NCBI GenBank assembly: GCA_027002475.1
Contig: JALWZS010000038.1
Span: 46,032 to 110,031, forward strand
Source: a bacterium
GTDB lineage: Bacteria > Patescibacteriota > 4484-211 > GCA-002791395
Reading direction: 5' to 3'
Length of the DNA stretch: 64,000 nt
Both the position numbers and the translations under genes were made by a program. Shown here piece after piece: positions 6,541-54,612 of this stretch. The notes beneath the pieces were generated by a model. It was not told the DNA's origin and searched no databases. It was given only the letters and a program-made list of their open reading frames with translations. The stretch's first letter is position 1, and each line of letters starts with the position of its first letter.

Positions 6541-6649
6541 CGGGAGACCTCTTTTGAGGGGAGTATGTTTGAGAGTTGTAGGGTTGAAGAGTTGTAGGGA
6601 AAATACTCTGCAACACGCAACACTTAAACTCTTCAACGATTAACTAAAC

Positions 6650-6955
6650 ATGGCAGGCAGAATAAGAGTACGATTACAATCTTATGACTACAAGGTGCTA
6701 GATCAAGCATCTGAGGAGATATTGGACGCAGTGTTGCAGTCTGGCGCTGAAGTTATTGGTCCTGTTCCCCTGCCTACCGTTGTTGAGAAGTTCACTGTTA
6801 TTAGAGGTCCTCACATTGATAAAAGATCTCAAGAAACCTTTGAACAGCGTACTCATAAGCGTTTAATTGATATTCTAAATCCTAATCCAAGAACACTAGA
6901 TTCCCTTTCTAACCTAGATTTGCCTGCAGGGGTAAGCATCGAGATTAAGATGTAA
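6650..6955 (+). CDS. rpsJ: 30S ribosomal protein S10
   Basis: 101 aa, [19 protein letters not shown]... is canonical S10. Confidence 0.95.
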
Positions 6956-7001
6956 CGCTTGTCTTTGCAATCCTTTTATTTATCCTTATAATTACTTTAC
7001 T

Positions 7002-8819
7002 GTGACGAGTAAGGAAATCTTAGACAAATACATCAATTTCTATAAAGAGCGTGGGCACGTGCAAATCCCTAACGTTTCTTTGGTTCCTGGTGGTGACTCT
7101 ACATTGCTTTTTGTGAACTCAGGGATGTTTCCATTAGTTCCTTACTTAGCAGGAGAGCCACATCCTGCTGGAAAACGATTAGTTAACATTCAGCGCTCTA
7201 TTAGGTTTGAAGATATTGATGAGGTTGGAGATAACCGTCATACAACGTGCTTTCATATGATTGGGAACTGGAGTCTTGGAGACTACTTTAAAAAAGAGCA
7301 ACTGCCTTGGATTTGGCAGTTTTTTGTTGAAGAGTTGGGCATGGATATTAATAAGATGTATGGGACTGTGTTTAGTGGTAATGAATATGCACCAAAGGAT
7401 GAAGTTTCGATTAGTCTCTTAAAAGAGATTTTCCCGAAGTATGGCATAGATGATCCAAAAGAAGGTGAGCGAATCTTTGCGTATGAAGGGAATTGGTGGC
7501 AGCGCGGTGATGCTATTGGTGAGCTTGGCGGTCCTGATAGCGAGGTGTTTGTCTATATTGGAGACGAGGGCACAGGATTTGGTAAAGACCCTGAGGAGTA
7601 CGAAGATGAATTTCTGGAAATAGGCAACTCGGTTTTTATGCAGTTTGTTAAAACCGAAAATGGTTGGGAGGAGTTACCTCAAAAAAACGTTGACTTTGGT
7701 GGAGGATTTGAGCGGATTGCGCTAGTTGTTCAGGGTAAAAAGGATATCTTTGAAACAGATAACTTTTGGCCAATTATTGAAAAGATTGAGGAACTTTCTG
7801 GGAAGAGTTACTACGAGAGTGAAGAAATAAAAAGAGTTATGCGGATTTTGGCCGACCATATACGCTCGTCTACGTTTATCGCTATGGATGGCGTTGTTCC
7901 AAGTAATAAAGATCAAGGATATGCTCTTCGTCGATTCCTTCGTCGTATGGTAAGGTTTGCAAGAAAAATTGGAATTAACGAAAACGTTGCTGGCTCGCTT
8001 GTCCCGACTGTTGCCAGTATGTTTGAGTGGTTGTATCCAGATTTGCCAAGCAAACAAGCAAACATAATTAGCTTGTTTGTTGAGGAAGAGGAAAAATTTG
8101 GTAAAACTCTTGCTAAGGCGGCTAAAAAGGTTTCAAAAAGACTAGACAATTTTGGTGGAGACTCGGCAAATCTAGCTGAGATTGCCTTTGACCTTTTTCA
8201 ATCCATGGGGTATCCACCAGAGATGTTGTTAGAAGATGCAACCGATAGAGGGATTGAGGTTAATGACGAGGAATTCTACAAAGTATATAAGGATAAGTTT
8301 AAAAAACACCAGGAAGGTTCAAGGCAAGGTGCTGAGGCTAAATTTAAAGGGGGATTGGCGGATCATAGTGAACAGGTTGTCAAATACCATACAACGACAC
8401 ATTTACTCCATTGGGCACTAAGACAGGTACTAGGAGAAAATGTTGTTCAACACGGTAGCAATATCACAGGAGAGCGCTTAAGGTTTGATTTTAACCACGA
8501 TGCCAAACTAACACAGGAGGAGGTCGAAAAAGTAGAGAATTTAGTAAATGAAAAGATTAAGGAAGGGCTTAATGTCGATTTTGTAATAATGCCAAAAGAA
8601 GAGGCACTCAAAACTGGTGCAATTCATGCTTTTGGGGAAAAGTACGGAGACGACGTTAAGGTCTATTTTATCGGGGATTCGTTAGAAAATGCAGTAAGTA
8701 AGGAGTTTTGTGGTGGTCCACACGTTAAAAACACCTCTAAGCTAGATCCGATAAAAATATATAAGCAAGAGTCTGTAGGGAAAGGTGTTAGAAGGATATA
8801 TGCCAAGAAGGTGGAATAG
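7002..8819 (+). CDS. alaS: Alanine--tRNA ligase, short form ending after the editing domain
   Basis: GTG start. Class II AlaRS catalytic core (FYKERGH, SLVPGGDSTLLFVNSGM) plus editing-domain Zn motifs HTTTHLLHWAL and CGGPHV. Only 605 aa, so no C-Ala domain. Confidence 0.85.
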   Translation: MTSKEILDKYINFYKERGHVQIPNVSLVPGGDSTLLFVNSGMFPLVPYLAGEPHPAGKRLVNIQRSIRFEDIDEVGDNRHTTCFHMIGNWSLGDYFKKEQLPWIWQFFVEELGMDINKMYGTVFSGNEYAPKDEVSISLLKEIFPKYGIDDPKEGERIFAYEGNWWQRGDAIGELGGPDSEVFVYIGDEGTGFGKDPEEYEDEFLEIGNSVFMQFVKTENGWEELPQKNVDFGGGFERIALVVQGKKDIFETDNFWPIIEKIEELSGKSYYESEEIKRVMRILADHIRSSTFIAMDGVVPSNKDQGYALRRFLRRMVRFARKIGINENVAGSLVPTVASMFEWLYPDLPSKQANIISLFVEEEEKFGKTLAKAAKKVSKRLDNFGGDSANLAEIAFDLFQSMGYPPEMLLEDATDRGIEVNDEEFYKVYKDKFKKHQEGSRQGAEAKFKGGLADHSEQVVKYHTTTHLLHWALRQVLGENVVQHGSNITGERLRFDFNHDAKLTQEEVEKVENLVNEKIKEGLNVDFVIMPKEEALKTGAIHAFGEKYGDDVKVYFIGDSLENAVSKEFCGGPHVKNTSKLDPIKIYKQESVGKGVRRIYAKKVE

Positions 8820-8842
8820 CTTCCTCATTAAGGAAAGTACAA

Positions 8843-8935
8843 GTTTCAAACGACAATACACAAATGTAAAACACGCAAAACATCATTATGTCCTCTAGTT
8901 TGTTTGGTCCTTTTAGCTTTTGCGGTTTGGTATTT
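8843..8935. repeat. CA-rich/TG-rich imperfect long palindrome (family copy 1)
   Basis: gtttcaaacgacaatacacaaatgtaaaacacgcaaaaca ... gtttgtttggtccttttagcttttgcggtttggtatttg. A CA-rich arm is followed by a partly complementary TG-rich arm. Confidence 0.4.
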
Positions 8936-8988
8936 GCCAGACACATTGCCATTTTTGTTAAAAAAAGCTACATTTAGGGTGTTAAATA

Positions 8989-10113
8989 ATGAAAGTACCA
9001 AAGTTAAAACTCTTTAGAAAAAAGGAAGACCACTTTAACATTATTGATTTGGGTACAACTAATGTTAAGGTCGCTGTCGTACGTGAAGCCGATGACTTGC
9101 GGGAACGTGAGGTACGCGGTGAAGCTACTCGCTTGCAGCCTGTTGGAAATATGTACGGTGGTCAGATAATGAATTTAGACGGCGTAATAGAGATTGTAGG
9201 GCAAGCCCTAGATGAAGCAGTTCTTAAGGCGTCGGTTAGTCCGCGTCGTACAGTTCTAGGGCTTAGCGGCGGAATAATGGTGCCGAAGTCTTTTAAGGTT
9301 CGGGTTAAAAGACAGTCGCCTGATGAGCCTTTAGATGATAAGGAGTTTGACGTCTTGGCAAAGCAGATTGAAAACAAAACGATGGATAAGGCTTTAACTG
9401 ATCTTGAAGCTCTTGGCAACGATAAGTACGTGAGGGTGGAAACGATATTTACGGATTACTTTGTAGATGGCGCTCGAGTTAGTTCTCCGCTGGGTCTTCC
9501 CGGTTCTTCGCTAGAAATTACATTACTGCACTACTTTATGGAAGAGACAAAGCTAAGAGGTTTTAATAACTTGGTAGATCAGTTGGATTTGGAAGTTGTT
9601 TCTATGGTTGATACTGCAGTTAATGCAGCAATAAATTGGATGAGCAAATACGGAGACTTTTCATTACTTGACATTGGTGGAGATGCAACTCAGATAATCG
9701 TTGTTTCCAATGGAAAGGTCGCGTTAAGCGAGTGCCTTTTTGTTGGTGGAATCGATGTTACGCAGGCTATCTCTGAAAGAGTAAAGGTTTCATATGAAGA
9801 GGCAGAGTCGTTAAAGTTAAAGTATGCCCAGGCTCAAGTTCCACATGAAAAGCTACAAGATGTGAGGAGTGCAATTACCGATGTTGTAGATATCATAATC
9901 GACGGTGTGGTAGAAGCATTTCGAAATAGTGGAATTGAGGAAATGCCAAACACTATTTTAATAGGCGGTGAGTCGCGGCATTTGCATGAGTTTAAGACTG
10001 CATTGTCCAGTTTCCCGTGGACCAAGGAACAAAACTTTAGCGTCTTTCCTAAAATAGAATTAGTGCCTGGTAAAGATCCTAATTTTGAAGGGTTACTAAA
10101 AATTGAGTTATGA
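8989..10113 (+). CDS. Actin-like ATPase of the FtsA/PilM family
   Basis: 374 aa. N-terminal IIDLGTTNVKVAVV phosphate-1 motif. LDIGGDATQIIVV (DxGGGTT-like) and VGGIDVTQAISERVKVSYEEAESLKLKY resemble FtsA/PilM. Confidence 0.55.
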   Translation: MKVPKLKLFRKKEDHFNIIDLGTTNVKVAVVREADDLREREVRGEATRLQPVGNMYGGQIMNLDGVIEIVGQALDEAVLKASVSPRRTVLGLSGGIMVPKSFKVRVKRQSPDEPLDDKEFDVLAKQIENKTMDKALTDLEALGNDKYVRVETIFTDYFVDGARVSSPLGLPGSSLEITLLHYFMEETKLRGFNNLVDQLDLEVVSMVDTAVNAAINWMSKYGDFSLLDIGGDATQIIVVSNGKVALSECLFVGGIDVTQAISERVKVSYEEAESLKLKYAQAQVPHEKLQDVRSAITDVVDIIIDGVVEAFRNSGIEEMPNTILIGGESRHLHEFKTALSSFPWTKEQNFSVFPKIELVPGKDPNFEGLLKIEL

Positions 10114-11627
10114 AAATTGTATTAAACGAACAAAATAGAATTTATCAATTAGTTAAAGCAATTAGGGAATCGTCAGATTTAGAGCTTGAGATTGTAGTGC
10201 CAAAGGACTCCTTGTTTAGAAGGAATCCTTTAAACGTCATATTCTTAAAAAATCTAGCACAACGATTTGGAAAACATGTGCAGATAACGGAAGATTCGTC
10301 GTCGAGTTCTGGTTCATCTCAGCCTAAGGCTACTGCAGCTGCAACTAAACCGCAAGAAGAAGCAGTCGAGATGATTAATGAGGAAACAACGGGAGGGTCT
10401 GCAGTTGAAAAATCAAGCGGAGAGGCAGAGACACCTATAGCCTCGCCAAAACGTTTTTCCGTTTCTCCTGTAAAGGTGTTAGCTGTTGTGTTCTCAATGT
10501 TGCTACTTATTATCATTGGCGGTGGAGCATTTGTTTACTATTACTTGCCGCAAGCAACAGTAACTCTTTTTGTTTCAGAAAAACTTATTGAAAAGAGTAC
10601 AACGGTAACTGTTGATGAAACTGCACAAAAGGTTGATATAGAAAAAAGAATTGTTCCAGGGAAAGAGGTACGTGTGTCGCTTGCTGGTGCGGATACATTT
10701 AAAGCTACTGGGGAAAAGACAATTGGTGAAAAAGCCACTGGAGTTGTAGAGATACGAAACTTTACGACGGCTGATGTTTTACTTGGTGCAGGGACAGTTC
10801 TTTCTACCCAACTAGAGGACGGTACACCACTTTCTTTTATATTGACTGAAAGTGTAACTTTGCCTCAGGCAACAACAGATGAGGATGTCCGTGTGGCTGG
10901 CAAAAAGACTGCTAGTGTAGAAGCTACCGATATTGGTGCGCAATATAACGTTAGCAGTGGGCACAAGTTCTCTGTTGCAGACTTTGATATAAACGATCTG
11001 TCTGCCGTAAACGATTCCGACTTCACTGGTGGAAGTACTGAGCAGGTAAAGATTGTGTCGGAAGATGACTTGCAGAGTGCAAAGGCAAAGCTGCAGGCAA
11101 AGCTTAAGACAGACCTAATAAATAAGCTAAAGCAGACGATTGGTAAGGACGAATTGTTCGAAGAAAAGTCGGTGTCTTTCTCAACGCTATCCGTTGATTC
11201 TAATCACGAAATTGGAGACGAGGCTGATTCGTTTACCGTAAACATGGAGCTAGAAGCAGTAGCTCTAGTTGTATCAAAAGAGGACATTAGGAGCGTATTA
11301 AAAGGAGAGTTGCTAGCTAATATTCCAGAAGGGTTTACTCTTTCTAAAAAAGATGAGGTAGTTACTATTCAAAACACCGAGGTTAAGGACGATAAGGTGC
11401 AAGTTAAGGCAAAGATTTCGTCACTTGTGGTGCCTGTTCTTGATACAAGTGAATTAAAAGAGCGACTACTCGGTAAAAGCCCTGCCGTAGCTGAGAGTAT
11501 TTTAAAAAGTATTGATAATGTTGAAGGGTATGATGTGCAGTTTTGGCCTGCGCTGCCTGAAGCAATAAGGACTTTCCCTCATATACCAGATAAACTTACT
11601 ATAAAGGTTGAGGTAAAAGCGGACTAG
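10110..11627 (+). CDS. Hypothetical bitopic membrane protein (cytoplasmic N-domain, one TM, ~360-aa exported domain)
   Basis: 505 aa. Start overlaps the upstream stop (ATGA). Single hydrophobic helix VLAVVFSMLLLIIIGGGAFVYYYL at ~aa 120-145. Ser-rich linker. No recognised domain. Confidence 0.5.
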   Translation: MKIVLNEQNRIYQLVKAIRESSDLELEIVVPKDSLFRRNPLNVIFLKNLAQRFGKHVQITEDSSSSSGSSQPKATAAATKPQEEAVEMINEETTGGSAVEKSSGEAETPIASPKRFSVSPVKVLAVVFSMLLLIIIGGGAFVYYYLPQATVTLFVSEKLIEKSTTVTVDETAQKVDIEKRIVPGKEVRVSLAGADTFKATGEKTIGEKATGVVEIRNFTTADVLLGAGTVLSTQLEDGTPLSFILTESVTLPQATTDEDVRVAGKKTASVEATDIGAQYNVSSGHKFSVADFDINDLSAVNDSDFTGGSTEQVKIVSEDDLQSAKAKLQAKLKTDLINKLKQTIGKDELFEEKSVSFSTLSVDSNHEIGDEADSFTVNMELEAVALVVSKEDIRSVLKGELLANIPEGFTLSKKDEVVTIQNTEVKDDKVQVKAKISSLVVPVLDTSELKERLLGKSPAVAESILKSIDNVEGYDVQFWPALPEAIRTFPHIPDKLTIKVEVKAD

Positions 11628-11631
11628 CATC

Positions 11632-12015
11632 GTGAGAATTCTTGCAATTGACCTTGGGTATAAACACACCGGACTGGCTATGTTTGATGAAACTCTTGGA
11701 ATTTCGCCTCTTGCAAATGTTGAACACAAAGACTTATACGAACTGCTTTCTAAGCTAATGCGTTTTATTGAGGATTATGGTTTTGACAAGATTCTTGTAG
11801 GCGATATGGGGGGCGGGGAAAACGAAGAGTACCTTAATAAGTTTGTAGATATTTTGCAAAGCCGCTTAAATTTAAAGTGTGAGATCGTGAGTGAGCGGTA
11901 TTCATCGAAACAAGCAACTAAGGAAATACAAAATACCGGCAATGTGGAGGTAAAAAAAGATCATGCATCTGCAGCGGTACAAATCTTAAGAGACTACGTA
12001 GTCAGGGATTTGTAG
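11632..12015 (+). CDS. ruvX: Putative pre-16S rRNA nuclease / Holliday-junction resolvase-like YqgF (RuvX)
   Basis: 127 aa, GTG start. MRILAIDLGYKHTGLAMFDE matches the RuvX/YqgF N-terminus (RNase H-fold). The position downstream of alaS matches conserved alaS-ruvX synteny. Confidence 0.8.
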   Translation: MRILAIDLGYKHTGLAMFDETLGISPLANVEHKDLYELLSKLMRFIEDYGFDKILVGDMGGGENEEYLNKFVDILQSRLNLKCEIVSERYSSKQATKEIQNTGNVEVKKDHASAAVQILRDYVVRDL

Positions 12016-12058
12016 GGTTGCGTTTTGGTATATGCATGAGATATATTAATAAAAGACT

Positions 12059-15000
12059 ATGAAACTAAAACTGCCTAGTTTGGTTGTTCTTATTTTAATT
12101 GGCTCATTTGCCTTGGGTAGTGTATTTATTGCTCCGCCAACAAGCGCTGATATTTTTGGCGGTGGAAGTAATTCTGGTGGTAGTATTTTTGGGAATATCT
12201 CTGATGGTGTTAGTGGTATCTTTGATGGGATAAGAGAGGCGTTCCCTGGCGGTGCAGTTATTCCTGCTGACTTACCAACGCCAACCCCAACGCCTGTTGG
12301 ATATACTTCGCCTCCTCCACAACCCCCAGCGTCGCTTGGTGATGTTCGTGAATTGAAACTAAGATTAGAATGGGATACGCTAAGCCTTGGTGGTGAGGCT
12401 GTGTACCCACAAGAAAAAGATCCACTGGTTTGTATACATCTCGGTGACGATCTTGCTGTGAGTGAGGGGTTCTCTGAGTGCGCTGGCCGTGGGTATCCTG
12501 GTGCGGTTGCTTGCGATAGGTGCGGGTTCGCCGATATAAATGATTATGCATTTGACGCCCAAAACCGTTTGGTGCGCAAAGACGTCTTAGGTATGAAGGT
12601 GGAAGCTGGTGCGGATAGTCCGCCGCCACCATCATCGCCACCTGACGGGGGACCTACGGTGGTAGCACCTTATGTGTGGGAGGTTTGTGTGCCTAGGCAA
12701 GAATGTAAGGTGGCTGACTTGACGCATGCGATTGTTGGGTGGTGTGGTCAAAATCCAGTTATTCAGAATACAGCAGGATTTAGTGCGAAAATACCAATTA
12801 ACTCTACTGGACCTAATTCATTCACGTTGCCGAATGCAGTGTCGAATAAGTATATTCGTAGGGATGGTTATGCGTTTAGGTGTGTGATTGCAGACTGTGA
12901 AAGCGGTACGTGTTCTCATGATAATTATGTTGAATTTCAGACTATGATTTACCCATCTAACGCAATCTCGATGTACTTAACTGTAGAAAATCCGTCTCAG
13001 ATCCATACAATAAATAATATTTTAATAAAATCAAATACACTAACCTTTGCTAAAGAAGGAGAAACTCCTCTACCTCACAATCTAGATTACTTAGTAGCTC
13101 AAAATGACAACAATCATAATAATCCACCTGTGGCAAATGATTTTTATAAGAATGACTATAAGCCAAGCGCCACTGGAGCACCTACTGAGGGATGGGGTTA
13201 TAAGCATGGTAATAACCTTACAGACTCGACTACAATAAATGTGAGTGGGGTCGATTTTAAAGTTAAAAAGGACACCTCTGATCCAAGTAGAGATGTTTAT
13301 TATTTTGAGTATGGCCCTTTTGACTTAGCCCCTGGACAAACTAAAAAACTACCTTACCAACCAGCTAGTGCCGAGTTTTCTATGATACCTGGGACGGCTG
13401 CAACAGTACCAGGGAGTGGACCGTCATTGGTACCACTTGCCAAACCATGTGAATGTCAGTCAGTTAAACTGCATGACGTATTAGGTACACCTCCAAATGG
13501 CTGTAATCAAGTAATAACTAATCCAACAATTAATCAGTGTCGTTTGTATTATGGAATAGGCGCAAAGCGTAATGAGGGTGGGACCATCGTTAACTATGCA
13601 GATCACTCAGGAGGATACTCTTGTGACTTGCAAGGAATAACAGTTGATGGTTGTCCACCGCCATGGTGCTTTGACGGAGCGGTCAGTCAAGTTGGTCCAA
13701 TGGACGAATGCGAAAAGATTATACAAAGGTATCCAGAGTTAGACCAGCACCCTGGTGGTCCAAATGGAAAAATAGATAACCCACAAGACTTAAATCTTGA
13801 TGGTGATTTCGATGATCCGGGTGAAGACGAATGGTGGTTCTGGAATATGTCGTCGCAGGGACCTGAGTCATTAAGTTCCTTGGGCTCGCTGGCAAAGGCG
13901 ATATTGCCCAGAGAGTTAGTGTCATTCTTTGGTGGTAAGGCCAAAGATGTCCCCGCTGAACTAGCATCTGTCAACGATGTGTCGGCGTTTGGATGTCCAC
14001 AACCGTGTCAAAACCAGCCGCCACCAGGAGTACAAGGTAAAGGTGGTATTATCCCAAGAGACTTTAACTTCATATGTGATCCGGATGACAAATACGATAG
14101 TGGAGATATGGTTGAAGAAAAGCGTTGTAGTGGAGTCGATTTTGATCCAGCTAAGAACAACAAGACAATTATCCCTCCTATAAATACGAACCACCCAGAT
14201 TTGGCGTATGATCAAATGCTTTTTAAAACATACCGTGACGTGACTGCATTAAAGGGATGTGGTTATAACGCTTCGTCGAATAATTCAGTAATTGGTCCTA
14301 TTCAAGTCGTTGCAGAATATGGCGGACGTGGCGATGCGCGCACTGGTAGATCTGTTCTCTTGGCGTCTATACCAATCGGTGGACGTATTTTAGACGACCA
14401 AGCCAGACCATATGGTTGGCCTGTAACCGGGGAGATTGAGCAAGACTGGGGTTACACTGGGCAAGCGGCAAATCAGGGTCCGTACCGTTCGACTCCATCA
14501 AGCGAGTACGGTGAGTACCGTTATTGTTCTCCTACAGATGCTATGCTCTCGCCTGACGAATTGCTTGCTACGAAGGTCTCTTGTCCTGATATTCCTGATT
14601 CGGACATAGATCAGGCAAACAATAATGCAAAGCCTAAAGCTGATTTAGTTGCTGCAATTAGTAATCCTGGCTCGATTATTAGGAACTGGGTTGCGTGTAC
14701 CCCTAATCCAAATGATGACTGTTGGCAGGAAACTATTGATAATGTAGATAAGTGTTATAACGCGGTGGTTAAAGGCGCTATGGATACAGGGAACGACCCT
14801 GCAATGGCGTTAGCTATTTGGTTGGAGGAGTCTGGCGCAAGTAACTATATGCACTTTCCTGACGTTGCGGACTTTGGATGCACAGCGGCAACACATAATA
14901 ATTTCAATGTACAGCTAGAGTGTTTCAACGGCTTGCAGGATAGTTACTATGACTGGATTCACAATCCAGCTAATTCTGCCAGAGATTGTGTAAAAAATGC

Positions 15001-24975: not shown

Positions 24976-25806
24976 ATGATAGATACTCACGCACATCTTT
25001 ATTTTGATTCCTTTAATGACGATAGAGAAGAGGTTATTAAAAGGATTGACGATGAATTAGATGCAGTTATCAACATAGGAATTGATACTACGTCAAATAA
25101 AAAGGTCATTGAGTTAGCGCAAAACAATGACAGGCTTTTTGCGGTAGTCGGTTTTAATCCAGAAGCAGTTGTTAAGCTTTTGGAGTCAGATAAAAACACT
25201 GATGACTTGCAAATAGAGTTGGGAGAACTGCTTTTACCGAGAAACAAAATCGTCGGGATTGGTGAGATTGGGCTAGATTATTACTGGAAAGAGTTTGCCG
25301 CAGAAAGCCAACGGGAACTACAAAAAAAAGGCTTTAGAGCGCAGGTAGAATTTGCAATAAAAAATGAGCTGCCGATTGTTATCCATTCTCGCGACGCCTT
25401 TTTCGATACGTTTAAAATATTAAGTGATTATAAAGACGAGTCTTATTTCAAGGGCGTTTGGCACTCATTTACCATAGATAAATCAGGTGGCGCTAATGGT
25501 GTTAGTCCAAAGGAGCAGTTGGAAAAGGTGCTAGGCTTAGGTCTTTACATCGGGGTTAACGGGATTGTCACATTTCCTTCGGCTAGGGGTTTACAAGAAC
25601 TAATAAAGGAGGCTCCATTAGGTCGAGTGCTTTTAGAAACAGACTCGCCATTTCTTGCTCCTCAGCCAAAGCGTGGGAAACGCAACGAGCCGGTATTTGT
25701 GCGCTTTGTGGCTAAAAAGATTGCGGAAATAAAAGGAGCATCAGTTAATGATGTTGCTATTCAAACAGATAGGAACGCAAAGGAGTTGTTTGGGTTGGAG
25801 AGTTGA
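24976..25806 (+). CDS. tatD: TatD-family metal-dependent DNase/hydrolase
   Basis: 276 aa. MIDTHAHLYFDSF and GEIGLDYY motifs are diagnostic. Confidence 0.85.
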   Translation: MIDTHAHLYFDSFNDDREEVIKRIDDELDAVINIGIDTTSNKKVIELAQNNDRLFAVVGFNPEAVVKLLESDKNTDDLQIELGELLLPRNKIVGIGEIGLDYYWKEFAAESQRELQKKGFRAQVEFAIKNELPIVIHSRDAFFDTFKILSDYKDESYFKGVWHSFTIDKSGGANGVSPKEQLEKVLGLGLYIGVNGIVTFPSARGLQELIKEAPLGRVLLETDSPFLAPQPKRGKRNEPVFVRFVAKKIAEIKGASVNDVAIQTDRNAKELFGLES

Positions 25807-25896
25807 AGGGTTGGAGGGTTGACGTATGAAGCGCCCAAAACGGTGAGAGATCGCCACGCATTTGCTCTGCAAATACTCGCGATGCAGTAGGCGTAA

Positions 25897-26259
25897 GTGG
25901 CGGGTTATAATGTTGTTATGTTTAAAGATAGACGGGTTCTTTTGTATACAATTGCCGCAATATTTATTAGCCAGTTGACCTTTTGGTTGGTGTTTTTATA
26001 TTACGATCAGTTGCCGCCTCAAATCCCGCTATGGAATTTGTCTAGCTGCGTTGAGTGTACCTTGGCTTCAACTGCGAACATATGGTATTTGCCTGGTCTT
26101 TCGATAGGTATTGTTGCATTGCATTTACTAATAACACTTTTTATTAACAAAACAAAGCCATTTATGGTTAATTTCGTTATGGGAACAACGCTTCCTATGA
26201 GCCTGTTTTTGCTTGGGGCAACGGTTAGACTGTTGGGGTTAGTGCTCGGTTGGTTTTAG
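25897..26259 (+). CDS. Hypothetical small membrane protein (occupies the position expected for rplO)
   Basis: 120 aa, GTG start (alternative ATG at 25918), three hydrophobic helices. Immediately upstream of secY. Confidence 0.4.
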   Translation: MAGYNVVMFKDRRVLLYTIAAIFISQLTFWLVFLYYDQLPPQIPLWNLSSCVECTLASTANIWYLPGLSIGIVALHLLITLFINKTKPFMVNFVMGTTLPMSLFLLGATVRLLGLVLGWF

Positions 26260-47879: not shown

Positions 47880-49757
47880 CTATTTGCTTTGTATCGGGAT
47901 TACTACGAACGTTGGGACTTCGTCGATGCCATCTATAAATAAAGAGTCAGTTAATGGGATGGCTTCTTGAGACACTTCTCCACCTCCTTGATATCGGATT
48001 ATAGATGCCAAGTCTTGATTTAGTGCGGTTTTGGCTCGTAACGAAGCGATTTGTATGTCAACATGGTTACTATCTATGCCTGGTATCTTGTTGTTCCATA
48101 TGGCAAGAATTAAGTTGTCATGCTCTCGGAACGCCAAGCAGTGTGTTTCTTGGTTTCCAGTGTTTATATAACCAAGAGGTTCGGTCTCAGTTGTTAACAG
48201 GCGTTTATTTATGCGGGCTAACGTTTGGAATAATGGTGTGGGTTGGGTTTTATCTATGAGGTTATAGTCGTAATCGCCCTCGGCACTAAGTTGCCACCAG
48301 GCAGTAGGCAAGGCACTTGCTTTATGGATTAATATTGTTTGTAGGGCATACGCCTGCATTCTCATTTGAGCTATTGCCTCAAACTCCTCACCCGAAACTT
48401 CGATATTTAACTTGACAAGTTCACTTTTAAGTCTTCGACGAATGTCCGATATGCTATAGCCCATTTCTCCTGCGATTACGAACAAATCAGGGTTAGCATT
48501 GTTAACGACCGTAAACAAGTGACGTAGCTCGTCCATATAAGTTCCATGCTCTGACCACTTTGATGGTTGCCCATAATTGTCTGGTGTGGATATCTCTCTT
48601 ATTGTAAATCTGCCGGTACGATTTGGGTGTTTGTTGTCCAAATCTGCACGCCACGTCGGTCCTGGTTCAGTTGGTTTTGCATATCCTTTGTATGGATGCA
48701 CGGATACGAACTGGATAATGTCTGCAATTTTGTGGCCGTTTGCTGTTTGAGTCTGCAATATCTCCTTAATGTAATCTGTATCTACAAAAGCTACATCAAT
48801 CCCAATTGTGGGTGTAGGGTAGTCTTTGCCTGTATCACTAAGCTCGCGTTTGTGTCGACGTAAACTCTCGGCGACAGTTCCTACTAATCTTGCGTAATGC
48901 TCTGGTACACGTCCTTCACTTGTAAACTGTCCTGATCGTGTTTCGTCTAAAATTATTCCATGGTCCGCTGTGTTAAAGTTTGGTTCGTTCCATATAGATA
49001 GAACTGCATTAGGGTAGCGTTCATAAATTATTTTTGCATACTCGACAAACGCTTCAATTTCTGCGTCTTCTGTGGGGATATGATACTCAGTTGGGACTTC
49101 TTCGTTTGTGTACTCAACTGTACCGTCTTCGCGTTTTACTGCTTTTAATGTGGAGTTTGTTTTTTTATTACCGTTTGAGTCTTTGTATTCTACTAAGCCT
49201 GGTCCCAGCGAGATTTCAAGATATGCGTTGGCTTCATTTATAAGATGATATAGTTCGTCTATTAGTTCTAATAATTCATTTGTTTGTGCTTTGTCATTAA
49301 GTAAAATGTTGGAGATTGATAAAGGACCGTTTTCGAAGTGAATCCGTACGTATCTAGGATGTAGCTCTTTTGCGGTACGTAAACGCTCTATTTCTTCGTT
49401 TATCCTCATCTTGGCAAGTCGTTGCGCTACTTCAGCTAGAATCCTTGGGCGCTCAGTAGGCTTTTCTGTAAAGGTTTGTATCTCCTCTGGTGTGGCTAAT
49501 TGGTTTGATGATGCAAGTTGCATGAGCGTTTCTGGCGGGATTGATTTCATGCGCTCTAGATACTCTTGGGCTGAGTGGCTTCCTAATCGAATGTTTACGC
49601 CATGTAGAAATTTTTGAGTCCTGGCTGGTTGAGGGGCGGGCTCTAATGTGTCATGAGATACTACGAGCTCGAAGGGGTGGTTTATCGAGGCTTCGTTTTC
49701 TGTGCCACCAAGAGTTTTCACTATTCGATTATATCGAAACCGGTGTGCTATTATCAC
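47880..49757 (-). CDS. Clan GH-A (GH5-like) glycoside hydrolase family protein, apparently cytoplasmic
   Basis: 625 aa with no signal peptide. LSIWNEPNF (acid/base NEP) and VIAGEMGYS (nucleophile) motifs. Upstream of and co-directional with the GT2 gene. Confidence 0.55.
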   Translation of the reverse strand: MIIAHRFRYNRIVKTLGGTENEASINHPFELVVSHDTLEPAPQPARTQKFLHGVNIRLGSHSAQEYLERMKSIPPETLMQLASSNQLATPEEIQTFTEKPTERPRILAEVAQRLAKMRINEEIERLRTAKELHPRYVRIHFENGPLSISNILLNDKAQTNELLELIDELYHLINEANAYLEISLGPGLVEYKDSNGNKKTNSTLKAVKREDGTVEYTNEEVPTEYHIPTEDAEIEAFVEYAKIIYERYPNAVLSIWNEPNFNTADHGIILDETRSGQFTSEGRVPEHYARLVGTVAESLRRHKRELSDTGKDYPTPTIGIDVAFVDTDYIKEILQTQTANGHKIADIIQFVSVHPYKGYAKPTEPGPTWRADLDNKHPNRTGRFTIREISTPDNYGQPSKWSEHGTYMDELRHLFTVVNNANPDLFVIAGEMGYSISDIRRRLKSELVKLNIEVSGEEFEAIAQMRMQAYALQTILIHKASALPTAWWQLSAEGDYDYNLIDKTQPTPLFQTLARINKRLLTTETEPLGYINTGNQETHCLAFREHDNLILAIWNNKIPGIDSNHVDIQIASLRAKTALNQDLASIIRYQGGGEVSQEAIPLTDSLFIDGIDEVPTFVVIPIQSK

Positions 49758-49763
49758 ACTAGT

Positions 49764-50477
49764 ATGAAGTTGCGTCCTTATAAGAAAAATCTTGATTATT
49801 CTTACACCTTAGGTGTTCATCCTACTAGAGTTTTATTAGAGATCTCTGATATTGAAATTGTTCAAATTTTAATAAACTCTCAGTTTGAAAAATTAGATGA
49901 TGTAAAAAGCCTTGTCAAAATAGCTAAATCTCGCGGAGTGATGACGACTGTATCGGATAAAGCAATACATCGGCTAGCCCCAAAGGAAAATACAGCAGTT
50001 ATTGGCGTTTTTAAAAAGTTTGAAAGAGCTTTGGATGAGGAGCGTTCACACATAGCACTTGTTAACGTTCGAAACAGTGGAAACTTGGGAACAATAACTA
50101 GGACCATGTTGGCGTTTGGCGTAAAAGACGTGGCAATAATTAGGCCTGCAGTTGATATTTTTCACCCAAGTGTAATTGCAGCAAGTGTTGGTGCTTCTTT
50201 GAAAGTAAACTTTGAATACTTTGAATTTTTTGTGGAGTACCAACGTAAATATGAAAATCACTCGATCTACACCTTTTTTAAAGAGGCGAATACACCTCTT
50301 CAAAACGTGAAATTTAATGAACCATTTACGCTGGTCTTTGGTAATGAAAACCAAGGGCTTCCAGAAAACATTAGAAATATTGGGACGGGAGTTAGTATTC
50401 CACAAACAGATGAAGTCGAGTCTTTAAACCTTGCAATGTCGGTCGGCGTGGCGTTGTGGGAGGCGGGGAGGAAGTAG
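49764..50477 (+). CDS. SpoU/TrmH-family RNA 2'-O-methyltransferase (RlmB-like)
   Basis: Start set at MKLRPYKK (the table ORF from 49653 would overlap the convergent gene). SPOUT motifs NVRNSGNLGTITRT, LVFGNENQGLP and SLNLAMSVGVALWE. Confidence 0.75.
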   Translation: MKLRPYKKNLDYSYTLGVHPTRVLLEISDIEIVQILINSQFEKLDDVKSLVKIAKSRGVMTTVSDKAIHRLAPKENTAVIGVFKKFERALDEERSHIALVNVRNSGNLGTITRTMLAFGVKDVAIIRPAVDIFHPSVIAASVGASLKVNFEYFEFFVEYQRKYENHSIYTFFKEANTPLQNVKFNEPFTLVFGNENQGLPENIRNIGTGVSIPQTDEVESLNLAMSVGVALWEAGRK

Positions 50478-50581
50478 GCGTCGTTCCTATAAGTGGGACA
50501 CGCTGTTATCCTCGAGTAAGGACTGCGCTATTGTTTTCTTAAACCCTAGATACATGAAAAGTGGTGTGTATAATCTAGTTT

Positions 50582-51085
50582 GTGAAGATTTTAATCTTAT
50601 CTGACATACACGACAATATTTGGAATTTGCAAAAGGTAATCGATGAGCAAAAAGGCAGAATTGATGCCTTAATTACTCTTGGCGATTACTGCGCACCGTT
50701 TATTGGTAGATACCTTAAAGAATTCGATGTCCCTTCATACGCTTGTCTTGGTAATAATGATGAGGATCAGATTGGTTTAGCTAAACTTTCTGGCGAAAAC
50801 TTCGCATGGACTTTTTTGGCTCGAGAATATGGTGAGGTTGAACTAGATGGCAAGAAAATCGCGTTTTGTCATTACCCAAGATTAGCGGAGTTGTTGGCAG
50901 AAACTAATGAGTACGATTTTGTACTTCATGGGCATACTCATAGGGCTAGAGAGGAAAAGCGTGGCGAAACTTTGCTTGTTAACCCTGGTGCAGTATGTGG
51001 GATTGTTAGTGGCAAGCCAGGTCCAGCAAGCTATGCAGTACTTGATACTAGCGACAACAATGTCCAAATAATAAAAATTTCTTAA
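50582..51085 (+). CDS. YfcE/MJ0936-family metallophosphoesterase
   Basis: 167 aa, GTG start. LILSDIHDN, GDYCAP, GNNDED and HGHTH metal-binding motifs. Confidence 0.75.
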   Translation: MKILILSDIHDNIWNLQKVIDEQKGRIDALITLGDYCAPFIGRYLKEFDVPSYACLGNNDEDQIGLAKLSGENFAWTFLAREYGEVELDGKKIAFCHYPRLAELLAETNEYDFVLHGHTHRAREEKRGETLLVNPGAVCGIVSGKPGPASYAVLDTSDNNVQIIKIS

Positions 51086-51165
51086 ATTTTCTTTATGTTT
51101 TGTGTGTCTTGCGTGTGTTGACCTACATGTTAAACTAAACTCGTTAATTTACACATTTATTAGAT

Positions 51166-51897
51166 ATGCATATTTCGATTGCCGCAGAAAAAGTATTTGA
51201 AATTGCAGGTTTTCCAATAACAAACTCTATGATTGCAACAATCGTGGTTTCGGTCGCTCTAATCCTTTTTGCATTGTTTTACAAAAGTCGGCTAAAAATC
51301 GTTCCATCTAAGTTTCAAGTTGTTGTTGAGATGATCGTTGGGACAATTTACGACCTTGCCAAAAGCATCTCTCCAAAACATGCAGATGAGTTTTTCCCAT
51401 TGGTTGCAACGATTTTTATATTTGTGTTGTTTTCTAACTGGTTTGGACTTATTCCAGGACTTCCGTACGTTGGCTTTACCGAAACCGTACATGGTAAAGA
51501 GGTGTTCGTTCCGCTTTTTAGAGCAGCGACTGCAGATTTAAATACCACTTTGGCGCTCGCTACTACGTCGATGATTGCTGTGTGGTATTACAGCATTAAG
51601 CACCTAGGACTATTTGCACACTTGGGTAAGTTTATCAACTTCAAGTCTCCGATTGGCGCTTTTGTTGGTATTTTAGAGCTAGTGAGTGAGTTTTCAAAGA
51701 TAATTAGCTTTGCGTTTCGATTGTTTGGAAACATCTTTGCTGGTGAGGTGCTACTTGCAGTTATGATGTTTTTGATTCCAGCAATAATCCCACTACCGTT
51801 TTTGGGAATGGAGTTTTTCGTTGGGTTTATTCAAGCGCTGGTGTTTTCGGTTTTAACAATGGTATTTATTAGTGGAAGCTTAGAGGCGCACGGATAG
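51166..51897 (+). CDS. atpB: F0F1 ATP synthase subunit a
   Basis: 243 aa, 5 TM. FRLFGNIFAGEVLL with the essential Arg. Confidence 0.9.
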   Translation: MHISIAAEKVFEIAGFPITNSMIATIVVSVALILFALFYKSRLKIVPSKFQVVVEMIVGTIYDLAKSISPKHADEFFPLVATIFIFVLFSNWFGLIPGLPYVGFTETVHGKEVFVPLFRAATADLNTTLALATTSMIAVWYYSIKHLGLFAHLGKFINFKSPIGAFVGILELVSEFSKIISFAFRLFGNIFAGEVLLAVMMFLIPAIIPLPFLGMEFFVGFIQALVFSVLTMVFISGSLEAHG

Positions 51898-51999
51898 AGT
51901 AAAGCGCTTTCTAAGGCTTTGACTTGTAGGTTAAAATAGGGTTGCTTGTTAAGCAACATTGGGTAGAAATGAGCAGAATAGCTCATCGAGGGGGTGTAA

Positions 52000-52260
<261 letters not shown>

Positions 52261-52267
52261 AAGAAAA

Positions 52268-52762
52268 ATGGAAGCTTTGGGAATAGACCTAAAACTAATC
52301 GCCTTTCAAATGGTGAACTTCTTGATATTGATGTTCATCTTGAAGAAGTTTTTGTATAAGCCGATTCTAGACATGCTAGAAAAGCGGCGGAAGATTGCTC
52401 AGGATACGGTTTCGCTAAAAGAGGAGTTAGAGCAGAAAATCGAAAATGCAGGGAAAGAAAAAGAAGCGGTTTTAATGGAAGCTAAAAAGGAGGCGGACTC
52501 GGTCATTGAAAGTGCAAAGGAAAAAGCAGAAAGGTTAGCTGAGCAGATCGAGAAAGAGGCAAGTGAAAAAGCAATGGCCATCGTACAAAAGGGCGAGGAG
52601 ACTTTGAGGGCTAAGGAGCGAGAGCTACGAGCATCTCTTAAAAATGAGGTTGCTAAGATTGCAATCGAGACGTCAGAGCAGGTTCTTGCCAGGACTTTAG
52701 ATGAAGATGTCAAACGAACCATTGCTGAAGAGTCGATAAGGAGGTTTGCACAAGATGGCTAA
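52268..52762 (+). CDS. atpF: F0F1 ATP synthase subunit b
   Basis: 164 aa. N-terminal TM plus a long charged helix (EEL/KEK-rich). Position in the operon. Confidence 0.8.
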   Translation: MEALGIDLKLIAFQMVNFLILMFILKKFLYKPILDMLEKRRKIAQDTVSLKEELEQKIENAGKEKEAVLMEAKKEADSVIESAKEKAERLAEQIEKEASEKAMAIVQKGEETLRAKERELRASLKNEVAKIAIETSEQVLARTLDEDVKRTIAEESIRRFAQDG

Positions 52763-53087
52763 TAATGCGCAAGCTCTTGTTGATAGGTTAGTTGAATACG
52801 CTGTAAAAAACTCGGACACGCAAGTTTTAAGATACATGCGAGATAAGGCTGAAGGGGTTTTGCAGCAAAGCACGGTGCTTGTTCGACACTCAGGCGAACT
52901 AGACAAGGCGCAGCAAGCGAGTCTTTTTGAGAGTGTGAAAAAGAAATTCCCACAGGCGCAGGATATAAAACTAGAGCGAGATGATAGTTTGATTGGTGGC
53001 GTTGAGATTGTATTTAAGGATTACAGATACGATGGATCGATTAGGGGAAGGTTGGAGGAGTTAAAGACCAAATTAGTAGGAGCATAA
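52746..53087 (+). CDS. atpH: F0F1 ATP synthase subunit delta (OSCP), truncated to the C-terminal domain
   Basis: 113 aa. C-terminal OSCP signature [27 protein letters not shown]. Overlaps atpF by 17 nt. The N-terminal alpha-binding domain is absent. Confidence 0.65.
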
Positions 53088-53089
53088 AA

Positions 53090-54568
53090 ATGGACGAATT
53101 ATTAACAGATATTGAACAACAAATAGAAAGCTTTACAAGTGATCATAAGTTGCAAAACATTGGTCGTGTGAAAGCAGTTAAAGATGGTGTGATACTACTT
53201 GATGGGCTAAGCGAAGTGCAGATGTCTGAGCGAATATTCTGTAAGGATAAAGGGCTCTCCGCAATGGTTCTTAACCTTGCCGAGCATGAGGTCGGTGCGG
53301 TTGCGTTGGGTGATTACACCAAGATCTCTGAAGGAGATGTATTCGAGGTAACGGGCGAGATCATGTCTGTTAAAGCATCAGAGTCTCTTTTGGGTAGGGT
53401 GGTTAATGCTTTAGCACAGCCTATTGATGGTAAGGGGCAGATATCTAGTGAAGGTAAGCTAATGCCTGTAGAAAAGATTGCACCAGGTGTTATTGAAAGG
53501 CAATCTGTTAACACTCCACTGCAAACTGGGATTTTGGCAATAGACTCAATGGTGCCAATTGGTCGAGGGCAACGAGAATTAATTATTGGAGACAGGGGGA
53601 CAGGTAAGACTGCAATTGCAATTGATACGATTATCAACCAAAAAGACGAAGAAAATCCTGTTATTTGTATCTATAACGCAATTGGACAAAAAGAATCAAG
53701 AGTTGCGCAACTTGTTGAAAAGTTAGAACAACATGGTGCAATGGATTACACAATCGTTGTTAGCTCTCCTGCAGCTGACTCTGTTGCAATGCAGTATTTG
53801 TCTCCTTACTCGGCAACGGCAATTGCTGAGTACTTTTTAGAGCAAGGAAAGGACGTGCTTATCGTTTATGACGACTTAACGAAGCATGCATGGGCATATA
53901 GGCAAATTTCATTAATTCTTGAGCGCCCACCAGGACGAGAGGCTTACCCAGGCGATATTTTCTATTTGCACTCAAGGCTTTTGGAGCGCTCATGTCGCTT
54001 AAACGATGAAAATGGTGGTGGGTCTATAACATCGCTTCCTATTGTTGAAACGCAATTTAGCGACGTAAGTGCTTATATTCCAACAAACATCATCTCAATC
54101 ACAGATGGCCAGATTTACTTGGAAACCGACTTTTTCAACGCTGGAATTAGACCTGCTGTGGATCCTGGAAACTCGGTTTCTCGTGTTGGTGGAGCTGCAC
54201 AAATTAAGAAAATGAAAAAGGTCGCAGGGCAGTTACGCCTTGACTTGGCGCAGTTTAAGGAGCTTGAAGCTTTTGCACAGTTTGGTAGCGGAGATCTTGA
54301 TGAGCGAACAAAAGAGCGAATTGAGCGAGGTAAGAGGATCCGTGAGCTACTAAAACAGCCGCAATACCAACCACTTCCAGTAAATACTCAAATACTATTG
54401 CTCTACGCTGTAAACAACGGCTATTTGGACGAAATGCAAATAAGCCAAATAAGTGATTTTAAAGAAAAGTTCACGCTATATATGCAAACGGTTGATAACG
54501 TGGACGAACCGGATGAAATATTAAAGGACTTTTTCAAGACGTATGAGGTGAAGAAGTTAGAGAGTTGA
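53090..54568 (+). CDS. atpA: F0F1 ATP synthase subunit alpha
   Basis: 492 aa. P-loop GDRGTGKT. Conserved throughout. Confidence 0.95.
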
Positions 54569-54612
54569 AGGGTTTAAGGGTTGCGCTACTCGAAACACTT
54601 AAACTTTAAGCT

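Follow-up and report, generated by a model that had tools for sequence, protein, structure and literature searches.

Octamer-repeat hairpins near gene boundaries in an uncultured CPR bacterium

A degenerate octamer dispersed among unrelated genes

The stretch of DNA analysed here, a window of 64,000 nucleotides, carries among others the genes tuf, rpsJ, ruvX, tatD, atpA, atpG and recA, and a short G/T-rich repeat recurs in the spacers and at the ends of several of them (Table 1). The host is an uncultured CPR/WWE3-like bacterium with a small genome and 41% GC. A preliminary description of the repeat had pointed to two 24-mers, GAGAGTTGAAGGGTTGGAGGGTTG at 25798-25821 (tatD) and GAGAGTTGAAGGGTTTAAGGGTTG at 54560-54583 (atpA). 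These are indeed identical at 22 of 24 positions, and in both the TGA lies inside AGT-TGA-AGG, with both proteins ending in -LES. The reported tandem version, GAGAGTTGTAGGGTTGAAGAGTTGTAGGG, was present between tuf and rpsJ at 6571-6599, and the downstream block said to be shared by the rpsJ and atpA copies, ACACTTAAACT, was found exactly twice in the window, at 6620-6630 and 54595-54605. The 8-nt periodicity had been missed: the repeated motif is a degenerate tandem octamer, (N-A-G-R-G-T-T-K)n, and TRF reported a period of 8 or 16 at all three loci originally named (rpsJ, tatD and atpA). Also missed were the element upstream of recA and the complementary octamer arrays that the rpsJ and recA loci carry on the minus strand.

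Table 1. Positions of the octamer-repeat features in the window.
Feature	Position	Strand	Basis	5' arm or array	3' arm
Octamer-repeat hairpin in the rpsJ 5' leader, between tuf and rpsJ	6567..6637	+	Sequence, octamer scan, fold	6571-6602: GAGAGTTG TAGGGTTG AAGAGTTG TAGGGAAA	~6606-6638, including ACACTTAAACT
Doubtful one-to-two-unit match over the ruvX TAG stop	12005..12022	+	Octamer score 12/14	GGGATTTG TAGGGTTG CG	
Array at the tatD 3' end	25790..25823	+	Sequence, TRF	TTGGGTTG GAGAGTTG AAGGGTTG GAGGGTTG AC	
Octamer-repeat hairpin at the atpA 3' end	54555..54612	+	Sequence, fold, relatives	54560-54583: GAGAGTTG AAGGGTTT AAGGGTTG	54592-54611: GAAACACTTAAACTTTAAGC
Octamer-repeat hairpin between a conserved 56-aa ORF and the recA promoter	59858..59960	+	Octamer scan, fold	59854-59894: TAGAGTGG TAGGGTTT AAGCGTTT TAGTGTTG GAGCGTGA	~59905-59957

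With up to three mismatches the 15-mer matched 10 times in the window against 2.3 expected, a count reached in none of 100 shuffles, and two-unit octamer matches numbered 12 against 1-3 in 20 shuffles. This enrichment, together with the non-coding copies at rpsJ and recA, bears out the view that the repeat is genuine and dispersed. It is scarcely credible that two genes simply happen to end in Leu-Glu-Ser-stop in G/T-rich codons. The ELFGL at the TatD end is conserved and its G/T-rich codons already resemble the octamer unit, and AGTTGA closes atpG too; but the identity between tatD and atpA continues 15 nt beyond the stop into non-coding DNA, the 15-mer occurs twice in exact form within 64 kb, and coincidence is contradicted by the shared 3' arm and by the non-coding copies, each with its matching complementary arm.

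At the rpsJ, atpA and recA loci a complementary array lies 10-60 nt downstream of the G/T array and the two form imperfect hairpins. The motif probably represents a small lineage-specific family of palindromic, hairpin-forming intergenic repeats with arms of 2-5 units of G/T-rich NAGRGTTK. A full element would likely consist of a G/T-rich array, a spacer of 10-60 nt and a complementary A/C-rich array; since the downstream array is complementary, the G/T arm comes first on either strand. Half elements consisting of the first array, such as that at tatD, probably exist as well. The family is thin, with four good copies in the roughly 84 kb of the genome examined (the window and 10 kb on each side).

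Individual elements and their counterparts in relatives

In the rpsJ leader, octamer matches were found at 6571 and 6579 on the plus strand and at 6633 on the minus strand. The hairpin had a minimum free energy of -30.6 kcal/mol (z = -4.5; 0 of 200 shuffles as good), and the sense strand folded at -27.8 against -16.8 for the antisense. The preliminary description had proposed RNA structure involving the downstream block, and the prediction placed ACACTTAAACT in the 3' arm. The rpsJ and atpA copies have both arms in common, GAGAGTTGNAGGGTT and AACACTTAAACT, and between the minus-strand arm at rpsJ and the plus-strand arm at atpA 20 of 22 positions agree (pattern GTTGAAGRGTTTAAGKGTTGCG), which suggests a common origin of the copies. 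Upstream of recA, the stop of the 56-aa ORF (59843-59845) precedes the array by 8 nt; matches were found at 59854 and 59862 on the plus strand and 59956 on the minus strand, and the hairpin folded at -30.8 kcal/mol (z = -2.55). The atpA hairpin, with the TGA of the gene inside its 5' arm at 54566-54568, was weaker than these two (-18.4 kcal/mol, z = -1.4; strand folds of -14.2 sense and -8.6 antisense).

The array at tatD spans the last five codons and the stop, TGA at 25804-25806. A complementary partner is absent, and a fold search of the array gave no significant structure (z = +0.85). TRF described it as 1.9 copies of a 16-nt unit, GGGTTGGAGAGTTGAA, with 93% match, and this period points to a 16-nt tandem duplication of the gene's end. 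The match over the ruvX stop formed no hairpin (fold z = -1.0), and its TTGTAGGGTTGC is conserved in a sister genome inside an 88%-identical stretch; it is probably not a family member and may be part of the promoter of the next gene. A weaker copy claimed at the atpG stop proved to belong to the AtpG coding sequence, which is conserved there, and the GC-rich hairpin after it is also conserved but is a different one; atpG also ends in AGTTGA.

Over 62 kb of the sister genome (~80% nucleotide identity) only the atpA copy and the doubtful ruvX unit are kept. Its atpA element differs by two G-to-A changes in the 5' arm and one loop change. The flanks of the rpsJ and recA sites are conserved in it, and an unrelated hairpin lies between them; more distant relatives have no insert at these sites. 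Among orthologous rpsJ leaders without the element, one has a different hairpin (L135), one a small unrelated hairpin (L133) and one none (L132). At the recA site L123 has an unrelated AC-first hairpin between near-identical flanks and L124 no insert. L124 also lacks the atpA element, its atpA and atpG overlapping without a spacer, and L125 has the element in a diverged form. The elements thus appear, from these comparisons, to be lineage-specific inserts and not conserved signals, and the suggestion of a conserved 3' signal or regulator site falls with the replacement or absence of the element at rpsJ and recA.

The proposal that an inserted repeat re-terminated the genes holds in its first half, given the relatives without the repeat and the overlap of atpA and atpG in one of them; re-termination of tatD does not. 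The sister tatD (L130) ends in ...GGATTAAAAAGTTGA with no array past the stop, and its protein is of equal length, ends in ...ELFGLKS* and has AGTTGA at the same position, from which the tatD stop and C-terminus appear to be older than the array. TatD tails differ among relatives, as do AtpA tails past ...TYE[VI]K, KLES occurring solely here and in the sister genome; the nucleotide repeat is not a by-product of protein conservation. Taken together, the preliminary interpretation stands for a dispersed, inserted repeat with RNA structure, and fails for the re-termination of tatD, the conserved signal and the atpG copy.

Origin and possible roles of the hairpins

The favoured reading, at a probability of about 0.6, is that these are repeat palindromes generated by slippage or insertion, and that they are tolerated, or of slight benefit, as stem-loops in the RNA where cistrons meet. 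Such elements would appear and turn over fast in transcribed spacers, arising when 8- or 16-nt units slip during replication or are duplicated in tandem, and spreading among loci by copy-and-paste or gene conversion. Since neither target-site duplications nor terminal repeats nor a mobilising enzyme came to light, it is the sequence sharing between copies that suggests copy-and-paste; no transposase or RAYT gene is present in the window. The elements are proposed to adjoin or overlap stop codons because they are tolerated there. Pure (AGGGTTGA)n or (TAGGGTTG)n arrays have a stop in all three frames within eight codons and their complements none, and the window's G/T arms close two to three frames; arms with TGA- or TAG-containing units close most frames in a few codons, so that a gene running into one would lose or change only 2-4 C-terminal residues. 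The stop-less units AGGGTTTC and AGGGTTGC are common in other phyla, so this argument is not general. The octamer family occurs in many phyla; among 126 AGRGTTK arrays from other phyla, a complementary array lay within 200 nt downstream in 24 and upstream in 0, and a co-oriented ORF stop lay within 60 nt of the array start in 46, compared with 17 on the opposite strand.

In mRNA the elements would form imperfect stem-loops with G-U pairs at cistron boundaries, acting as decay barriers or segment boundaries or remaining neutral. In every octamer hairpin, here and in relatives, the sense strand folded 5-11 kcal/mol better than the antisense, a bias that could come from transcription-associated C-to-T mutation instead of selection. 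Alternatively, the stem-loops might be selected RNA cis-elements that set the stability or processing of mRNA segments, through RNase Y/J or as barriers to 3' exonucleases, or that bring about factor-dependent termination where cistrons end, for example tuning ATP synthase subunit ratios and rpsJ expression. The folding bias is consistent with such a role, and RNase J and RNase Y are encoded in the window. In Xanthomonas, G-rich arrays are the site of a transcript start or stop more often than control repeats are (PMC4692102). Two genomes have some hairpin at the rpsJ and recA sites, and the atpA hairpin is maintained by two compensatory pair changes when this lineage is compared with L125 (three sequences, in a repetitive, slip-prone alignment), which together hint at selection for structure over neutrality. 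Selection for such a role is nonetheless considered rather unlikely: relatives at 80-89% protein identity do without a hairpin at these sites, the tatD copy forms none, and position is kept where sequence is not. A terminator reading was rejected when no T-run was found at the elements.

A role in translation, which the preliminary description had suggested in the form of translational coupling, is quite improbable. The G/T arm would supply stops and SD-like GGAG/GAGG strings that hold ribosomes for re-initiation, or else ribosomes would stall at the stop because of the hairpin, so that less of the upstream gene's product is made. Stops do lie inside the array at atpA and tatD, and the small ORF before recA stops just ahead of the array there; reading frames that run into G/T arrays are soon closed, and atpG and rpsJ have no SD adjoining their ATG. 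Liang, Rudd and Deutscher reportedly found in 2015 that REP elements about 15 nt or less from a stop codon lower translation in E. coli. However, the tatD stop is ancestral and was not donated by the array, and the elements are not read as a device for supplying stop codons. The rpsJ copy lies ~140 nt from the preceding stop and behind its own promoter, the recA copy is followed by a promoter and not by a coupled cistron, the next start codon is 90-180 nt away past further hairpins, and what SD-like strings the arms at atpA and rpsJ contain are weak.

A DNA-level signal is a further reading, in which the octamers would be iterated sites bound by a regulator, by a nucleoid protein or by a system for recombination or DNA uptake. 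In its favour, there are promoters close to the copies at rpsJ and recA and to the tatD copy, in the last case that of the following gene; operators, too, can be made of iterated and inverted half-sites; and the family is found in many phyla. This too is judged very improbable: the flanking genes are functionally unrelated, the adjoining promoters are ~100% conserved and the sites themselves are not, and the units are too degenerate for signals of the uptake-sequence type. In B-DNA an 8-bp spacing places successive sites on different helical faces, and the strand-specific G-U pairing points to RNA.

Relation to described repeat classes

A search of Rfam gave no family matching the elements. 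REP/BIME/REPIN sequences are imperfect palindromes, short and scattered through transcribed intergenic DNA, frequently right after stop codons, and have been proposed to stabilise upstream mRNA and affect termination; in placement and shape the present elements resemble them. REPs are 20-40 nt long and not built of tandem sub-repeats, unlike the tandem octamers described here, and they are linked to a RAYT transposase, none of which is encoded in the window. They carry a conserved GTAG or CGTC head (PMC3733652), whereas GTAG occurs here in some arms (rpsJ, recA) and not in atpA or tatD.

Cyanobacterial STRR (short tandemly repeated repetitive) heptamers are likewise tandem 7-nt units dispersed in intergenic DNA, sometimes in hairpin-forming contexts. 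They are also found within a helix of RNase P RNA. They belong to a different phylum, have different units and form long, near-perfect arrays, which by description sets them apart. Rehm et al. cite them as the earliest report of such repeats (PMC4692102).

The TAACTGA heptamer direct repeats of Beggiatoaceae, Cyanobacteria and Bacteroidetes, for which an RNA-level role was proposed and never shown (MacGregor 2015, PMC4679880), share a short unit repeated two to six times, an intergenic position beside unrelated and often essential genes, including ribosomal protein genes, and a patchy phylogenetic distribution. Those arrays lie a few nucleotides upstream of start codons, have an exact unit and, with one indirect repeat among 170 sets, hardly ever occur in inverted form (PMC4679880), whereas the present ones are placed chiefly at the 3' ends of genes and pair to form hairpins.

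Among described classes the nearest is that of the G-rich GGGNATC heptamer arrays (GGGAATC / GGGGA(C/T)T) known from Xanthomonas and Nostoc. These come as convergent inverted pairs, vary between close relatives, lie within 50 bp of stop codons or overlap them on the sense strand, and have no established function (Rehm et al. 2015, PMC4692102). Like these, the present elements consist of a head-to-tail G-rich unit of 7-9 nt in non-coding DNA, often as two convergent, stem-loop-capable arrays whose G-rich strand comes first whichever strand is read; even in close relatives they differ in length and sequence, and the associated genes have no common function (PMC4692102). Here the unit, of 8 nt, is far more degenerate, the arrays are short at 2-5 units, and the host is a small-genome CPR bacterium of 41% GC instead of one with a large, high-GC genome. 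Four G3 tracts are absent, so the G-quadruplex property stressed for the Xanthomonas and Nostoc arrays is not shared. Insofar as the octamer hairpins at gene ends resemble G-rich arrays already described near stop codons, the finding is a modest and mostly ordinary one.

A degenerate octamer repeated at cistron boundaries

The 24-mers overlapping the TGA stop codons of tatD and atpA lie where a preliminary description had placed them and are identical at 22 of 24 positions. Both TatD and AtpA terminate in -LES, with the TGA lying within AGT-TGA-AGG in each gene, and the related version reported in the rpsJ leader was also recovered. By Pfam, the genes around the copies were identified as TatD, AtpA, AtpG, EF-Tu and S10. 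Repetition of the motif in the window exceeds chance. With up to three mismatches the 15-mer had 10 matches against 2.3 expected, a count reached in none of 100 shuffles, and a two-unit octamer score gave 12 matches versus 1-3 in shuffles.

The motif is a degenerate tandem octamer, N-A-G-R-G-T-T-K. TRF reported a period of 8 or 16 at 6572-6594, 25792-25822 and 54564-54583, with a period of 16 at tatD. A scan for NAGRGTTK found it at five loci, one of them doubtful, the units being degenerate and numbering only 2-5. Two of these loci were additional to those described previously, namely a full copy upstream of recA and the doubtful match at ruvX. The ruvX unit, TTGTAGGGTTGC, is conserved in the sister genome GCA_054010915.1 and lacks a hairpin; it is probably not a family member, and this single unit is probably promoter-related. 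The 56-codon reading frame preceding the recA copy (59675-59845), which matched no Pfam family, has a positional counterpart annotated as a gene in three relatives' loci (L123, L124 and L128).

In the elements at rpsJ, at atpA and upstream of recA, a G/T-rich array is followed, after a spacer, by the complementary A/C-rich array, so that a complementary array lies downstream in three of the four good copies. The block ACACTTAAACT, which occurs exactly twice in the window (6620-6630 and 54595-54605), is the second arm of the element, and RNA structure involving this downstream block was supported. The octamer scan also found minus-strand units at the rpsJ and recA loci. The minus-strand arm at rpsJ matches the plus-strand arm at atpA at 20 of 22 positions, and this match across strands, with both arms shared, argues for a common descent of the rpsJ and atpA copies.

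Predicted folding energies are listed in the table. For every octamer hairpin, in the window and in relatives, the sense RNA folds 5-11 kcal/mol better than the antisense, a bias that points to G-U pairs in the mRNA. This would be compatible with structure at the RNA level; a transcription-associated C-to-T bias could also yield the same. When every unit contains TGA or TAG, a pure array stops all three reading frames within 8 codons and its complement is free of stops; the G/T arms of the window close two to three frames. Because the G/T arms close frames so quickly, a palindrome landing G/T arm first on the 3' end of a gene would be harmless, an argument that does not apply to the stop-free units present elsewhere. 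Intrinsic termination was rejected as a role, as a terminator scan found no T-run at any octamer copy; its sole terminator-like match, at 6548-6561, corresponds to the small conserved stem that precedes the rpsJ element.

Octamer copies and other spacer elements (window coordinates unless a locus is named; L123 and L135 belong to the sister genome; for rpsJ and atpA the position is that of the 5' array, and MFE and z refer to the whole hairpin).
Feature	Position	MFE (kcal/mol)	z	Remark
Octamer, rpsJ leader	6571-6599	-30.6	-4.5	
Octamer, tatD 3' end	25798-25821		+0.85	no significant fold
Octamer, atpA 3' end	54560-54583	-18.4	-1.4	
Octamer, recA upstream	59854-59957	-30.8	-2.55	full copy from octamer scan; between conserved 56-aa ORF and recA promoter
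Octamer, ruvX stop				weak one-to-two-unit match from octamer scan; doubtful
A/C-first hairpin family	54606-54746, 57108-57235, 61140-61300			
A/C-first hairpin family	8835-8965			possible copy
A/C-first hairpin family	L123 17199-17352; L135 9918-10000			
GC-rich hairpins	55644-55735			atpG-atpD spacer
GC-rich hairpins	25826-25890, 61320-61470			

Turnover of the elements among relatives

Judged from its AtpA, TatD and S10 homologues, the host would be an uncultured CPR bacterium near candidate division WWE3; the GC content of the window is 41%. The sister genome shares approximately 80% nucleotide identity with it, and its AtpA and TatD are 95% and 75% identical to those of the window. The sister retains the octamer hairpin between atpA and atpG; its 5' arm differs by two G-to-A changes and its loop by a single change. 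At this site a more distant relative (L125, AtpA 83% identical) carries an octamer-like hairpin that has diverged, its TAA stop lying within the array, and the three-sequence alignment contains two compensatory pair changes. In another (L124, 80% identical) atpA and atpG overlap and the spacer is absent. Beyond the conserved ...DFFKTYE[VI]K, all relatives have a short, variable AtpA tail, and alignment of the C-termini restricted KLES to the window and its sister. These last residues are therefore lineage-specific, and the element modifies the last codons of atpA.

The suggestion that the array had supplied the stop codon of tatD did not hold. The sister TatD has the same length, ends in ...ELFGLKS and carries AGTTGA at the same position, with no array 3' of it, and hence the tatD stop and C-terminus are older than the array. 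TRF resolves the tatD array as a tandem duplication of 16 nt in which the end of tatD itself was copied, and the element possibly modified one tatD codon (K in the sister, E here).

The two remaining sites differ among relatives as well. Upstream of recA, the end of the small reading frame and the recA promoter are near-identical in the sister, the approximately 115 nt between them cannot be aligned, and the sister site holds a different hairpin with its A/C-rich arm first; in L124 the insert is absent. In the rpsJ leader, the promoter and a small 5' stem are common to five relatives. This stem is followed by the octamer hairpin in the window, by an unrelated A/C-first hairpin in the sister, by nothing in L132 and by a small unrelated hairpin in L133 and L134. 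The array complement CUCUUCAAC resembles boxA, GCUCUUUAACAA, and rpsJ encodes NusE. A conserved boxA/Nus regulator was nevertheless rejected, since orthologous rpsJ leaders lack the element.

Only the atpA copy and the ruvX unit were found in 62 kb of the sister genome, and no further octamer copy was present in an extra 20 kb flanking the window, which brings the source-genome coverage for the repeat count to approximately 84 kb. These counts indicate that the family expanded in the window's own lineage. The octamer elements are thus inserts that turn over rather than conserved signals. Of the explanations offered in the preliminary description, an inserted repeat, here a dispersed one with RNA hairpin potential, fits the comparison, and a conserved 3' signal does not, the element being absent or replaced in relatives. 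The weaker copy proposed at the atpG stop was discarded, as that stretch belongs to conserved coding sequence; the GC-rich hairpin that comes after it is also conserved and is a different one.

The reading we favor, with a probability of roughly 60%, is a lineage-specific family of octamer-array palindromes, which slippage or duplication would produce and copying between loci would spread, and whose stem-loops at cistron boundaries would be tolerated or mildly useful. The finding alone reveals no new mechanism. It does indicate that a streamlined CPR genome of about 1 Mb (contigs of relatives reach 1.1 Mb) still bears fast-evolving hairpin repeats inside essential operons, in atp, in the rpsJ leader and upstream of recA, where they are able to alter the final few codons of a gene, which is relevant to the annotation of gene ends and spacers in CPR metagenome-assembled genomes.

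Neighboring spacer elements and the rpsJ leader

A second dispersed hairpin family has the opposite topology, with an A/C-rich arm of ACAAAT(T)-type heptamers followed by an ATTTGTG-type arm. Both the core and the 3' end, TTTTGTGATTTGAAAC, are conserved among its members. Three copies, at atpG, atpC and the sister rpsJ, end 4-12 nt short of the start codon, and the family occupies non-orthologous sites in the window and its sister. GC-rich hairpins that contain GCGATC and CGTCACTGCGA motifs make up a third type of spacer element, whose atpG-atpD copy is conserved in L123 and partly in L125. Perfect TATAAT boxes (25906-25920 and 60006-60022) precede two ATG codons by 6 and 8 nt, an in-frame one at 25918 in the 120-aa reading frame after tatD and that of recA at 60020. 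The spacing suggests leaderless or near-leaderless mRNAs for these two genes, and both regions are almost identical in the sister.

The gene order around rpsJ (window 5240-8819; L126 1-8015) is unusual, since rpsJ stands apart from the L3-L4-L23...L15 cluster. That cluster is located upstream, separated by genes for an AAA ATPase, UDG and RNase J, and rpsJ is a solitary gene that follows rpsL-rpsG-fusA-tuf, precedes alaS and has a promoter of its own, an arrangement shared by WWE3 relatives. The promoter (6532-6561) is of the extended -10 type, TGGTATAAT. The small 5'-terminal stem that follows it, CCUC-UUUU-GAGG, is kept in five relatives and is altered on both sides in L133 and L134, to CCUCC-AGC-GGAGG; the sole SD-like string of the leader is paired within it. 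That the rpsJ hairpin might bring the upstream GAGG near the rpsJ AUG is speculation, and is kept as such because the GAGG is itself paired in this conserved stem.

Comparison with known repeat classes

At the gathering threshold of Rfam 15 only two tRNAs passed in the window, and permissive scans of the three hairpins returned only generic hairpin models far below threshold. A literature search for the literal repeat strings gave no match. REP/REPIN elements are imperfect palindromes of 20-40 nt, whereas the octamer hairpins measure 58-103 nt and are made of sub-repeats. The conserved GTAG or CGTC head of REP/REPIN has a counterpart in the GTAG of the rpsJ and recA arms and is absent at atpA and tatD. 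REP/REPIN are also accompanied by a RAYT (Y1 transposase) gene, and none was seen in the window or flanking loci: no transposase or RAYT domain occurred among the scanned window ORFs or the precomputed Pfam lists of overlapping and flanking loci, several ORFs at 20.6-35.5 kb being covered only via syntenic orthologues in L130 of the sister genome. MITEs are defined by terminal inverted repeats and a target-site duplication; on comparing filled and empty sites at rpsJ and recA, a duplication was unreadable because the flanks are too diverged or the element is replaced.

Closest among the described classes are the G-rich heptamers that Rehm et al. (2015, PMC4692102) reported from Xanthomonas and Nostoc, with closely matching properties. 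Those arrays are dispersed and non-coding, form approximately 70 convergent inverted pairs per Xanthomonas genome and differ between close relatives, and no function was found for them. Short-unit arrays beside unrelated essential genes have a second precedent in the TAACTGA heptamer repeats (MacGregor 2015, PMC4679880).

Genome contigs were also scanned with the over-degenerate pattern AGRGTTKNAGRGTTKNAGRGTT, which gave a pattern-biased sample of matches from unrelated phyla, with ORFs taken as crude stop-to-stop calls; the source genome was not among the matches listed. For the 126 AGRGTTK arrays among the matches listed, a complementary array occurred within 200 nt downstream in 24 cases and upstream in none, the G/T arm thus coming first in all pairs (24:0), and in 46 arrays the start had a co-oriented ORF stop no more than 60 nt away, compared to 17 when the opposite strand was taken as sense. 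Downstream-only pairing and co-oriented stops mirror the Xanthomonas pattern. A metagenome scan with the tighter GAGAGTTGNAGGGTTKNAGRGTTG gave 30 matches, mostly (AGRGTTGG)n arrays, all from unrelated genomes (26-69% GC) and none WWE3-like. Tandem octamers such as AGGGTTGA, AGAGTTGA, AGGGTTTC and AGRGTTGG are present among the scan matches (L002-L121 and L137-L166) in Bacteroidota, Verrucomicrobiota, Acidobacteriota, Chloroflexota, Gemmatimonadota and other groups, at 26-69% GC and often next to arrays built from different 7-9-nt units. At contig ends, a few AGGGTTTT arrays are eukaryotic-telomere-like and may be contamination.

The 24:0 topology and the 46 versus 17 stops, as for the Xanthomonas heptamers, hint that convergent pairs of G/T-rich 7-8-nt arrays after stop codons form one pan-bacterial 3'-end class with a shared, unrecognized function, which we consider quite improbable. 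Such a function may, for example, be a factor-dependent bidirectional transcript-end signal or an RNA-protection signal read by conserved machinery, and the WWE3 copies would then be the first CPR representatives of the class. The link among G/T-rich long-unit arrays, convergent pairing and stop codons appears general.

The octamer family shares with the class of Rehm et al. the head-to-tail iteration of G-rich 6-9-nt units and the convergent pairs, seen in three of four good copies. It also shares the position of the G-rich strand, on the coding strand and within 50 bp of a stop codon or overlapping it, the rpsJ leader excepted: the array overlaps the stop at tatD, at atpA and, if that doubtful match is counted, at ruvX, and upstream of recA it begins 8 nt beyond the point where the 56-aa ORF stops. 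It differs in lacking the four G3 tracts that confer G-quadruplex potential, and a canonical quadruplex was rejected on this count (three GGG tracts at tatD, two each at rpsJ and atpA). Rehm-type arrays are over-represented genome-wide, at tens to hundreds, and the octamer family is known here from approximately 84 kb. It adds a further data point to the tendency of G-rich long-unit repeats to be associated with stop codons.
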